Assembly (NCBI GenBank): GCA_963575745.1
Contig: CAUYUJ010000144.1
Coordinates: 1-64,000 of the forward strand
Direction of reading: 5' to 3'
From: Prorocentrum cordatum
Lineage: Eukaryota
Length of the DNA: 64,000 bases
The notes beneath the pieces were generated by a model. It saw nothing but the letters and a program-made list of their open reading frames with translations. It was not told the origin of the DNA and made no database searches. Position numbers and translations under genes: made by a program. How positions within the stretch are numbered: the stretch's first letter is position 1; each line of letters opens with the position of its first letter. Positions 33,564 through 50,829 of this stretch are shown piece by piece.

Positions 33564-34864
33564 CTCGGGGCGGCGGCGGTCGCGAGGGGCACGCCTCCGG
33601 CTGGCGCCCCAGCGGACCGCGCCCAAGCTCGCCGCCCGACGGGGGTGCCAAGCGAAGGGTGCGCGAGGCGGGGATGCACACGTCGGTCGGAAGAGGTAGG
33701 GAAAACAGAAAGTAGGAAGGCGGACAAAGTATGTTGGGGCCAGGCCCTCCCAGAGAATCGCAAAGCACAGCAATATCACATCGATTCTTGAAGCAGGAAG
33801 GCGTCTGAAGTAGATAGGGATCTGGGAATCCAGAAATACCTACTTTCAACAACCGGCGTGTACAGTCAAGACGTATAACGAGGATGCGCAATAAGGATGC
33901 GAGGGCCTTGGAAGGCCACGTTGACGTTTTTCGAACGGGGGGCGGCCGAAAAGCGAAGGATACAAGGGTACCGGAAACCGAAGGGGCAAGGATGCAAGGC
34001 AACCTTGGAAAATTGCTCATCCTTACGATGCGCCTTGACAGTGTTCATGTCCACCACCTGGGAACCGAACTCCTGGGACCCCAGGTGGCGATCGGCCAGA
34101 CTGGTCTGGGCTCCATGGGTTTCCCGGAGGGCCTCAGGTTCGATATTCATTAGGCTGCTCGGGCTGATCCTTCCTTCAATTTGACTGATGTCTTCCCTCT
34201 TCCCTTCCTCCTCTTCCCTTCTTCCGACAACTCACCTGTGAATCGTTCCTGGATGAGCGAGTCGGGATACGGGCAGCATCAGCAATGCCAAATGGAGGGG
34301 CCTTCAGGACCTTTCAAGTTCTTCTTGACGCTCGTCACAATAGCCTCCTCCTCCCCCTCCTCCTCGACTGGACCTTGCATAGCCTCCTACCCCTCCTCCT
34401 CCTCCTCCTCCTCCTCTTCCTCCTCCTCATCGCCATCGTCGTCGTCCTCCTCCTCTTCCTCTTCGTCTGGCCCTCTTGCATCTCAAAGTCACCGTGATCC
34501 CAACGACTGCGCCCCAGCAATTACCACCCATCCAGTGGTGGCCTTCCCCCCACCAACTCACAGACATTCGCTGGATCACCCGCCAGGATGACAGGAGGAC
34601 ACGGAGGATGAAGAATAATAGCAGCATCACGGGAGGCTGGTACCACTCCCTCCAGTTCCGCCGTTCGCCGTCTCCCTAAAGCCATGAAGTCCCTGGAGCG
34701 TCCTTCGGGATCCAATAGCCTGGACAGGATCACATAATCCCAGCAGCCTGTTGAGCTAAGTTGGTTTGACGAGTGTTTTTTTTCTCTTCCAAAGCCCTCT
34801 TCCCTGCGGGGAGTGGTACCCTCCCCCTCCCCTCCCTGTTTTTTTTTTGGGGGGGGGAGACGGG

Positions 34865-35405
34865 TTAGAGCGTCCAAGATGGCCTCAGATGGCTCCAAGA
34901 GGGCCCCCGATGCTCCAAGATGGCCTCCAACATGGCTCAAGGTAGCCGACGATGGTTCCAAATAGCTTCCGACATACCTCCAAGAGGCCCGACGAGGGCT
35001 ACAAGACGGTTCCAAGTGCTCTCGGAGCCACCGCAGGACCCCCCAAAAGGCCAACATCCTTCAAACACCCTGTGAAAATCAATGAATCATTTGTGCCGTC
35101 TCGCCTTTTCGCTTCCGATGCGCTTTCAGGGATTCAAGATGGCCCCAAGATGGCCCAAGAAAGGCCCAAGAGGGGCCCAAGAGACCCTCCCAGACGGGCC
35201 CAAGAGCGCCCAAAAGCGCCCCATGAGGCGATTTGGATGGCTCCAGGGGGGGTGGGGGGGGGGCGAAACCGGGGACTCCCCTCCTTTGATCGATAGCCTC
35301 CATGATGGCCTCAAGAGACCCTCCATCGCTCCCGAGAGGACCTCAAGAGAGCCCCAAGACTATCCCAAGAGCGACCAAGAGCGCCCCAAGAGTGTCCCAC
35401 GAGGG
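34865..35405 (+). repeat. CCCCAAGA/GGCCCAAGA-rich dispersed repeat; related copies near 10890-11200, 25860-26240(-), 27480-27660, 28200-28400, 45850-46310(-)
   Basis: Recurrent ccaagatggcc/ccccaagag/cttggg motifs. Confidence 0.7.
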
Positions 35406-36080
35406 CTCCTCCTCCTCCTCCTCCTCCTCCTCCTCCTTCTCCTCCTCCTCCTCATCCCCATCCCCGTCCCCATCCCCATCCCCATCCCCGTCCCCATCCC
35501 CATCCCCATCCCCATCCCCATCCCCATCCCCATCCCCATCCCCATCCCCATCCCCATCCCCATCCCCATCCCCATCCCCATCCCCATTCCCATCCCCATC
35601 CCCATCCCCATCCCCATCCCCATCCTCATCCTCATCCTCATCCTCATCCTCACTCTCATCCTCATCCTCATCCTCATCATCCTCAGCATCGTCATCATCA
35701 TCAACATCATCATCATCATCATCATCATCATCATCATCATCATCATCATCATCATCATCATCACATCATCAGCAGCATCATCACATCACATCATCATCAT
35801 CACCATCACCATCATCATCACCATCACCATCATCATCATCAGCATCAGCATCAGCATCAGCATCAGCACATCATCATCATCACCATCATCATCATCATCA
35901 TCATCATCATCATCATCACATCATCACCATCATCACCATCACCATCATCATCATCATCATCATCATCATCATCATCATCATCATCATCATCATCATCATC
36001 ATCATCATCATCATCATCATCATCATCATCATCATCATCATCATCATCATCATCATCATCATCATCATCCATCATTATCG
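35406..36080. repeat. Compound microsatellite (TCC)n-(CCCCAT)n-(CCTCAT)n-(ATC)n
   Basis: Directly visible. Confidence 0.95.
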
Positions 36081-36639
36081 TCATCCTCCTTCTCCTCCCC
36101 TCGCCCTCCCTCGGGCCCCAAGGATAGCCGAAGAGGCCCTCCAAGGCCCCCCCCTGCTCCCAGAGATCTCTCTGTTCATCCTGGTTGCCCGCGTTGTCTC
36201 CGTATGTGTGTCTCTCCGTTCCTTTTCCCGTCAGCTCTCATGGGTAACGTTTCCGAATGGCTGGTGGGGGTACTTTTTGATTGCGAGTGACGCGGAAGCA
36301 GCCGCGCACCGTCAAAGGGCTGGTGAGGATACGCAAAGCGAGAAGAACGTGATGAAACTGTGCCTTCTGGAACGACAAGGAGGAGCATCGACTAAGTTTG
36401 AAAGTAATTCGACGCGGATATGTCATTACCTCGTATGTGCGTGAGCGAGTCTGAGCCTGCGTGCGATTGACTGACAGCTTGTCTGAGTGTGAGCGATGCT
36501 GCCTGCTGTTCTCTGCCGCTCGCTGGTGCGCTGTCCTTTCTGAGTTGCTCTGTGCAACTCTCGTCTCACTCCTGGCGCCCACTCCTCCGTATCCGCCTCC
36601 TCCTCCTCCTCTGCCCAGTCGGCGTCCCCTTGGCAGGCC

Positions 36640-49673: not shown

Positions 49674-50015
49674 GGCTCCAAGTTCGCCCGAAGACCACCT
49701 GAGATTGGCCCCAACAACGCCCGCTCACGTCTCCAGACCCCACGGGCCCCACGCCACGAGCCCAGCATAGTGGGGGGGGCCCACCAACGGGGCTCCAAGT
49801 TCGCCCGAATACCACCCGAGATTGGCCCCAACAACGCCCTCGCTCACGTCTCCAACTTCACGGGCTCCAAGCCTCGAGCCCAGCAGAGTGGGGGGGGGGC
49901 CCACCAGGCTCCAAGTTCGCCCGAAGACCACCTGAGATTGGCCCCAACAAAGCCTTCGCTCACGTCTCCAACCCCACGGGCTCCAAGCCACGCGCCCAGC
50001 AGAGCGGGGGGCCCA
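49674..50015 (+). repeat. Three tandem ~117-bp units
   Basis: 'ggctccaagttcgcccgaa.accacc.gagattggccccaacaa' at 49674, 49791, 49907. Confidence 0.9.
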
Positions 50016-50579
50016 CCGTCAGACTGCGACGCCCTTGAAGGTTAGACATGCGTGCGGGGTGTGTGTGCTGCATATGATGCGGCTTCGATCCCTCCCTCTA
50101 TGCATCTTTCCCTGCTTCGCCCCTGTGTCTCCACTTATCGATTCGCTCCTCGATCTTCCCTCCATTCATTCGCCCCTCGATCTTCCCTCCATTTATCCAG
50201 ATCTCTCTGTATCGCTGTCTCCCTACCTCCCTGTCTCTCCACTCACTCGCTTCCTTGCTTTCCGTCCCCTCTCTCTCTCTCGCTATCCCTCTCTGTCTGT
50301 GTTCCCCCAGATCGCTGTCCCGATAACTCCTGCTGGCAAGATGTCTAACCCACACGAGTCGTGCTCGTCAGATCAGGAGAAGACGCAAATGGACGCAACA
50401 CATTTGTGCACAAGCAGACCGTGTATTTTTCGGGCAAAGAGTTACGTCACACTTGCCCTGGGTGCATCGGAGAAGCACCGTACAATCGCAATGTCGCAGT
50501 ACCAAGCCCTGACGACTCATAAACAAGTCCTACGACCAGCGGAGAATCGGTTGGCAATTGCACGCGTTATTACTACATC

Positions 50580-50735
50580 CCTCTCCTCGAAGTCAAGCGC
50601 AGGTTTTTTTCCACGACATGGCGACGACTCTGGACCCCCACTGTCAATGCTGCAGCGCTGCGCGCGTCCATCAGCATTGCAATTCGGGGGCGAGGGGGTC
50701 GGATCAAAACTTGCGTTTGACTTCGAGGAGGGTTG
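50580..50735 (-). repeat. Dispersed repeat (family D), inverted relative to the copy at 9835-10030
   Basis: Shared 'caaccctcctcgaa.tcaaacgcaagttttga.ccgacc.cgcccccgaatt..aatg..gatggacgcgcgcagcg'. Confidence 0.8.
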
Positions 50736-50829
50736 CAGGGTTAGGTCGGGCATGTCGCCCTGCAAGGGGACTTTGGGCGAAAATTCAAGACGAGTCGGGC
50801 TGAGCGGCTTGCAGAGGGACAGGCCCGAC

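Follow-up and report, generated by a model that had tools for sequence, protein, structure and literature searches.

A probable single-exon Sec14-type gene nested in sense inside a large intron of a micro-exon hydroxylase gene in Prorocentrum cordatum

The DNA analysed here, called the window, is a stretch of 64,000 nucleotides (nt) from Prorocentrum cordatum (contig CAUYUJ010000144.1, positions 1 to 64,000). Its minus strand carries a gene of the aspartyl/asparaginyl beta-hydroxylase family. Intron 4 of this gene, a GC-AG intron, very probably holds a functional single-exon Sec14-type (CRAL-TRIO) gene nested in the sense direction. The original prediction, made from the letters of the window, had placed the Sec14 gene on the strand of its host and inside a host intron. 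This placement is borne out by an RNA joint across the intron and by the rebuilding of the host protein P0004 from the window. All features below are on the minus strand unless stated otherwise.

The Sec14 gene and the intron that holds it

The Sec14 open reading frame (ORF) is uninterrupted between its ATG (43801) and its stop codon (42710). The coding sequence (CDS; 42710-43801, stop included) is a single exon for 363 amino acids (aa), recognised from the ORF, from Pfam and PDB matches, from homologues and from an RNA contig. The frame first proposed for it, 42710-43591, is indeed open and continues in frame to the ATG at 43801, so the start at 43591 lay too far downstream. The start methionines of the two closest relatives align with ATG 43801 in an alignment of nine sequences, and this is also the first ATG in the Sec14 RNA contig. 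Since the homologues align from ATG 43801, the CDS is taken as 42710-43801.

Residues 191-330 match the Pfam family CRAL_TRIO (PF00650) with an E-value of 1.2e-15 and 58 bits, against a curated cutoff of 22.6. At E-values of 0.001 or less the protein matches 17 distinct PDB sequences of solved Sec14-fold chains, the best being Sfh1/YKL091C (2.2e-16) and Sec14 (1.5e-12). Pfam does not report CRAL_TRIO_N at E-values up to 0.01; a LLRFYN-type stretch ahead of the CRAL_TRIO domain, which may be CRAL_TRIO_N-like, is kept in 9 of 9 aligned sequences. A collection of 5.8 billion proteins contains 11 relatives with E-values from 3.5e-148 to 2.4e-63, all 11 with PF00650. They are stand-alone proteins of 315-465 aa, mostly on transcript-sized contigs of 1.0-1.4 kilobases (kb), and one is labelled Polarella glacialis. 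The two nearest (68% and 62% identity) span 95% and 97% of the query, N-terminus included. A hydrophobic, Cys-rich N-terminal stretch is common to the Sec14 protein and its closest relatives, with the peak 15-residue hydropathy at residues 18-32. The product is a predicted lipid-binding or lipid-transfer protein with a conserved hydrophobic N-terminal segment. Another candidate relative (L002), from a gut metagenome, has 27% identity over 50 residues and was disregarded.

The host was rebuilt from P0004, a protein of 329 aa deposited as "unnamed protein product [Prorocentrum cordatum]" and 97% identical to the ORF of the last host exon, which served as the query. The same query returned a second protein, P0005 (235 aa, from a 966-nt contig). 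In tblastn P0004 falls on the minus strand in many short pieces of about 100% identity. The rebuilding script allowed only G[T/C/A] donors and AG acceptors and required every letter of P0004 to come out; it recovered the whole protein from the window as 15 micro-exons with legal splice sites. The whole gene extends over 16256-61312, with a 990-nt CDS over 45 kb, exons of 15-111 nt and 14 introns of 167-10,083 nt. The donors are 6 GC, 5 GA and 3 GT, and the acceptors are AG. This mix agrees with the published splice donors of the species, which are GC in 51.4%, GT in 24.7% and GA in 23.8% of cases (PMC10666404).

Intron 4 (41862-51944) is 10,083 nt long, has a GC donor and an AG acceptor, and is given by the RNA joint and the P0004 rebuild alike. 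It is bounded upstream by exon 4 (51945-52037, 93 nt; tblastn at 100%, RNA contigs and splice sites) and downstream by exon 5 (41771-41861, 91 nt, AG|G acceptor and GT donor; tblastn with P0004 and P0005, and RNA contigs). Exon 6 (38871-38902, 32 nt) follows from tblastn, from the rebuild and from RNA loose ends before 41769 in three runs (X1, X15, X5), and exon 7 (33476-33563, 88 nt) from the AG before 33563, tblastn and the rebuild. The homologue P0005 is colinear with the host exons on both flanks of the Sec14 gene. The original prediction had drawn a 17-kb intron from 50829 to 33564, an interval that takes in exons 41861-41771 and 38902-38871; RNA supports the intron 51944-41862 instead. 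One of the two flanking exons named there does start at 33563 after an AG, but no exon ends at 50830. The putative exon 50830-50897, 68 nt between an AG and a GT, is found in neither P0004 nor P0005 and is skipped by the RNA joint. It was rejected also because 68 nt would break the frame between two phase-0 exons.

RNA evidence and the ends of the Sec14 transcript

For the stretch 42400-44000, 18 runs from 10 studies were listed, 7 of them on record as RNA. Four runs were aligned over 41750-52100: X1 and X15, whose library type is not on record, and X5 and X8, which are PolyA RNA-seq. Contigs from such runs drop rare forms and cannot prove where an RNA starts or ends, nor its strand or its level. 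A joint 41860/51944, which skips 10,083 nt, occurs in 3 of the 4 runs (X1, X15 and X5, with none in X8), in one contig each. These contigs are 673, 1032 and 1186 nt long; the shorter side of the joint is 92 nt and its position is ambiguous by 3 nt. Their loose ends, before 41769 and behind 52038, read as the host exon 38902-38871 and an exon at 59.5 kb. RNA contigs thus do skip host sequence, over 51944-41862 and not over the proposed 50829-33564.

The same three runs (X1, X15, X5) contain separate, gap-free Sec14 contigs of 1587, 1602 and 1581 nt, which lie on 42368/42376-43954. Those of X1 and X15 have no differing letters, and in X8 the unit is covered in three pieces. Sec14 RNA also occurs in poly(A)-selected libraries. 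The intervals 41862-42367 and 43955-44171 have no RNA cover, and the binned depths are those of the Sec14 contigs alone. Since the flanks are without cover, the RNA is read as a discrete Sec14 transcript and not as DNA carry-over or a retained intron. The Sec14 contigs (42368-43954) lie wholly inside the joint, which skips 41861-51943 (+/-3). The host pre-mRNA is cis-spliced across the entire nested unit, and the Sec14 mRNA is distinct from the spliced host mRNA. Contig depths in X1, X15 and X5 are 67.9, 67.5 and 23.3 for the host against 12.3, 61.2 and 18.4 for the nested gene, figures that cannot rank expression.

In another reading, the host would use the Sec14 unit as an alternative 3'-terminal exon, and the product would be either a hydroxylase-Sec14 fusion or a truncated isoform. 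The unit and the host share a strand, and a usable AG is present at 43952-43951. However, exon 4 of the host ends in phase 0; with the 149 nt of leader that start at 43950, the Sec14 ATG is no longer in frame, and the in-frame reading stops at 43747. Among the contigs listed, which drop rare forms, none joins 51945 or any other host exon to the Sec14 unit, and the homologues are stand-alone proteins that start at the same methionine. Frame and the absence of a joint rule this structure out as a working model, and its probability is close to nil. As to the chimeric reads from upstream exons into 43665 that the original prediction had proposed to look for, no host-Sec14 joint occurs among these contigs.

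It is also very improbable that the arrangement is an assembly artefact, with the Sec14 unit misplaced via repeats, or that the flanking exons come from fragmentary duplicates. Microsatellites and tandem repeats abound in the intron (22 rows), and 64.8% of the genes of the species are dispersed duplicates (PMC10666404). However, one complete 329-aa model accounts for all 15 exons, which follow each other in order on a single strand and have legal splice sites; this speaks against the separate partial gene copies that had been named as a possible refutation. The RNA contigs of X1 and X15 match exons 4 and 5 without differing letters and continue with exons 3 and 6. Between the Sec14 3' end and exon 41861-41771 there is just about 0.5 kb, most of it unique sequence. 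With a spacer this short and mostly unique, the Sec14 gene is upstream of an internal host exon whatever the assembly further up.

Compared with the window, the strain sequences of X5 and X8 have 6 differences in the 1092 nt of the Sec14 CDS (4 synonymous changes, L40F and E132D) and 8 in 483 nt of its untranslated regions (UTR). The divergence is about 0.5% in the CDS versus 1.7% in the UTR, a pattern consistent with purifying selection on the ORF.

The 5' UTR up to the contig stop (43802-43954; X1, X15 and X5 contigs) is 153 nt long and contains no ATG. The 3' UTR is 42368-42709, with contigs that end at 42368 (X1) or 42376 (X15 and X5). All three full contigs stop at 43954, and 43954-43951 reads CAAG, followed by C at 43950. 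CAAG is also the last four bases of the 22-nt dinoflagellate spliced leader, DinoSL (PMC12014239). If the leader joins at AG|C 43951|43950 and another 5' form exists too, the assembly graph would be expected to branch where leader and genome diverge, which would stop the contigs at 43954; a plain 5' end there would look the same. Spliced-leader trans-splicing at AG|C 43951|43950, with 43951-43952 as the candidate acceptor AG, is plausible, mainly because dinoflagellate nuclear mRNAs are generally trans-spliced. A scan of the window for DinoSL gave no significant match near the Sec14 gene. The original prediction had put the acceptor at 43665. An AG|G does follow a T-rich run there (43667-43666|43665), but this position belongs to the CDS and the RNA contigs continue through it unbroken, so trans-splicing at 43665 is not upheld. 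At the other end, the X15 contig has 23 unaligned letters past 42376, and there is no genomic A-run at the Sec14 3' end.

The Sec14 mRNA would accordingly mature like other dinoflagellate mRNAs, by trans-splicing of the leader at AG|C 43951|43950, and would be cleaved and polyadenylated near 42376, about 0.5 kb upstream of the next host acceptor. Its RNA is either cut from the host primary transcript or transcribed on its own. If expression is driven by the host, trans-splicing at 43951|43950 and polyadenylation near 42376 would sever the host pre-mRNA, and each transcript would give either Sec14 or hydroxylase mRNA. This is doubtful. Host and Sec14 gene are on one strand, their mature RNAs appear together in 3 runs, and the host acceptor follows the Sec14 3' end after only about 0.5 kb. 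Dinoflagellate genes are encoded unidirectionally, with DinoSL trans-splicing as the presumed means of resolving polycistronic transcripts (PMC10666404). However, no unspliced or chimeric contig is listed and no leader is seen. The expression ratios of nested genes to their hosts in Amphidinium range from 0.07 to 14x, which the authors attribute to differential transcription of adjacent regions (PMC12584245). The further proposal, that the Sec14 mRNA has no promoter of its own and is carved from the host transcript by a switch between trans- and cis-splicing that may be general for dinoflagellate nested genes, is unlikely. If it is true, each host transcript would be committed either to hydroxylase mRNA, with the 10-kb intron cis-spliced, or to Sec14 mRNA.

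Several points weigh against a functional nested Sec14 gene. The contigs contain no spliced-leader letters: those of X1 and X15 are flush at 43954, and that of X5 has 2 unaligned letters. The ends of the Sec14 RNA are weak hints, and its strand is taken from the ORF. The part of the intron at 44.7-51.5 kb is repeat-rich, and the assembly there is taken as deposited. The GC content of the Sec14 CDS (0.526) is far under the mean CDS GC of the species, 65.9% (PMC10666404). The gene also lacks independent annotation support, because the 5.8-billion-protein collection has no entry of at least 90% identity among proteins of 199-636 aa, the length range searched (longer and shorter models were not searched). 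The host model P0004 is present in that collection, and the nested gene seems to be unannotated and absent from the deposited protein set.

Origin of the nested gene

The original prediction had described the Sec14 gene as a retrogene. Retroposition is a tentative explanation and less likely than not: an SL-capped (spliced-leader-capped) Sec14 mRNA would have been reverse-transcribed and inserted into the host intron, and a relic of the old leader would lie just downstream of the current acceptor. The gene is intronless in a species in which 83.7% of genes have introns, at a mean of 9.8 per gene (PMC10666404), but about 16% of its genes are intronless anyway (PMC10666404). Retrogenes are abundant in Prorocentrum minimum, with 477 of them (PMC12014239). 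The dinoflagellate relic leader, DinoRL, is defined as CCATTTTGGCTCAAG directly after the trans-spliced leader (PMC12014239). A degenerate DinoRL-like motif (43931-43948) starts 3 nt past the candidate acceptor, at the 5' end of the RNA contigs, and matches 13 of 15 DinoRL positions with one 2-nt insertion, for a local alignment score of 14. In the window, both strands taken together (128,000 nt), 66 sites score at least as high, which puts the chance of one falling by position in a 30-nt window on this strand at about 0.015 and makes the placement suggestive. That retroposition has been at work nearby is shown by a perfect DinoRL at 13815-13801, also on this strand.

Against this origin, a score of 14 is below the best in shuffled sequence (19-21). 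Exact CCATTTTGGCTCAAG does not occur at the Sec14 gene, and the motif fails the literal DinoRL criterion (PMC12014239). A poly(A) remnant and a target-site duplication were sought at the Sec14 unit, and neither was found: there is no A-run past the 3' end, no direct or inverted repeats flank the unit, and the 100 nt upstream and 100 nt downstream share no word of 6 nt or more. The 11 Sec14 protein matches include no parent and no intron-bearing paralogue, so the intron-rich paralogue that had been proposed as a check did not appear among them. What stands of the retrogene claim is the intronless structure and the degenerate relic-like motif, while the poly(A) remnant, the target-site duplication and the parent are missing.

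Base composition had also been noted, and the Sec14 CDS is indeed less GC-rich than the host exons. Its GC is 0.526 (0.508 at third codon positions, GC3) versus 0.671 (GC3 0.803) for the host CDS, with 0.547 for the intron. However, the transcript of an orthologue, L001 (68% identical, from a metagenome scan), is equally low in GC3 (0.489); no leader is present at its 5' end. Because L001 has a similarly low GC3, low GC is not read as a mark of insertion. It may be a trait of the gene lineage or of the source organism of L001.

Surroundings and known systems

ORFs were taken from stop to stop with at least 45 aa and a Shannon entropy above 3.3 bits, with low-complexity sequence dropped, which left 772 in the whole window. 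Pfam was run on minus-strand ORFs, 145 ending at or above 44000 and 133 ending at 22000-44000, and on 33 further selected ORFs. The only meaningful matches in these scans were PF00650 in one ORF and PF05118 in two; the remaining matches were sub-threshold and in low-complexity sequence. The 145 ORFs ending at or above 44000 gave no meaningful match, and the Sec14 gene is the only meaningful minus-strand match in the intron. On the plus strand, 73 ORFs at 41.0-52.5 kb were all below the curated Pfam cutoffs, and the window has no Rfam match at gathering thresholds. The better PF05118 match has 45.5 bits against a cutoff of 22.6 (ORF 22920-23147, exon 23081-22971), and the second has 18.8 bits, under the cutoff (ORF 25623-25892). 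PF05118 is also a precomputed annotation on P0004 and P0005.

The host gene is extremely fragmented, with an exon GC3 of 0.80 versus an intron GC of 0.54-0.63. P0004 reads past a canonical AAG|GTAAAT donor at 29804|29803 and then splices to 25685 (29732-29832, 25638-25751). The segment that this splice leaves out, FFLVAHLGLELE, is in frame and conserved, with matches to PF05118 and to P0005, and has no AG acceptor on its upstream side. Around 29832-25638 the deposited model P0004 is therefore a putative isoform, of a hydroxylase copy that may or may not be catalytically intact.

Very long microsatellites lie in the host introns at 40948-41746, 51211-51517, 35621-36085 and 37330-37795, made of (CTC)~262, (ATC)~101, (CAT)~156 and (AC)n. 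One of them begins just 25 nt past the downstream end of exon 41861-41771. The stretch 44151-44328, upstream of the Sec14 gene, has an inverted repeat of 17 nt, whose arms are 94% complementary and 140 nt apart, and a 14-mer that is duplicated. RNA contigs of X1 and X15 match up to 44328 and then run into sequence from outside the window; the 30-nt loose end at 44328 has 0 matches elsewhere in the window at up to 3 mismatches. The probable explanation is a small dispersed repeat that is transcribed at another place. Short RNA contigs with high summed depth, 1-3 mismatches and loose ends on both sides occur in several runs at 49380-49428 and 50990-51140, where their sequence overlaps with a 116-nt tandem repeat and with a GC-rich motif that is repeated. 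At 44172-44328, 45927-46072, 49380-49428 and 50990-51140 the contigs are short, 95-99% alike or loose-ended, and they probably represent repeats transcribed from other loci. Intron parts without RNA cover (most of 44864-49361) are uninformative either way.

Host intron 3 has long ORFs of 355, 279 and 186 aa at 52529-55619, which have no Pfam match at E-values up to 1. By eye they resemble the decayed reverse transcriptase/RNase H of a non-LTR (non-long-terminal-repeat) retroelement. The perfect 15-nt DinoRL (13801-13815) stands after an (ATC)n microsatellite, about 2.4 kb downstream of the last host exon. It is a textbook retrogene tag for the next unit downstream, with an ORF beginning near 13731; Pfam matches none of the ORFs that follow the tag.

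Retrogenes tagged by DinoRL are reportedly those of the Slamovits and Keeling type, treated also by Song et al. in 2017. Like the Sec14 gene they are intronless and have a leader-like remnant directly downstream of the presumed trans-splice acceptor (PMC12014239). In contrast to them, the Sec14 remnant is degenerate and not significant alone; the exact DinoRL is missing here and present at 13815-13801, for a neighbouring unit.

The yeast phosphatidylinositol (PI) transfer proteins Sec14 and Sfh1 (YKL091C) align through their CRAL-TRIO domain with residues 189-340 of the predicted product, at E-values of 2e-16 to 2e-12. Unlike them, the predicted product has an extra conserved N-terminal region of about 70 residues with the hydrophobic, Cys-rich stretch, and its lipid ligand and its function are predicted.

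In animals, same-strand nested genes and intronic polyadenylation occur, and nematodes have SL-trans-spliced genes; as in these cases, the processing signals of an internal sense unit could compete with host splicing. In dinoflagellates, unlike these cases, sense orientation is the default because coding is unidirectional (PMC10666404), and competition at the present locus is a proposal.

Nested genes make up 25.2% of genes in Amphidinium carterae (PMC12584245) and 6.5-8.4% of genes in Polarella glacialis, where they are validated by full-length transcripts (PMC7245778). The word 'nested' does not occur in the main text of the P. cordatum genome paper (PMC10666404). The Sec14 gene resembles the nested genes of A. 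carterae and P. glacialis in that it lies wholly in a long intron of a micro-exon host and has its own transcript (PMC12584245, PMC7245778). Unlike those surveys, it is a specific and apparently unannotated case at a Prorocentrum-labelled locus. Micro-exon hosts and the genes nested in them escape unaided reading and standard annotation. Neither of the two surveys settles by what route a nested mRNA is released from its host or transcribed inside it, and the present locus is a defined one for asking whether dinoflagellate nested genes depend on host transcription with trans-splicing or on initiation of their own. The locus is ordinary for dinoflagellates, in which nested genes are already common, and it is well documented here.

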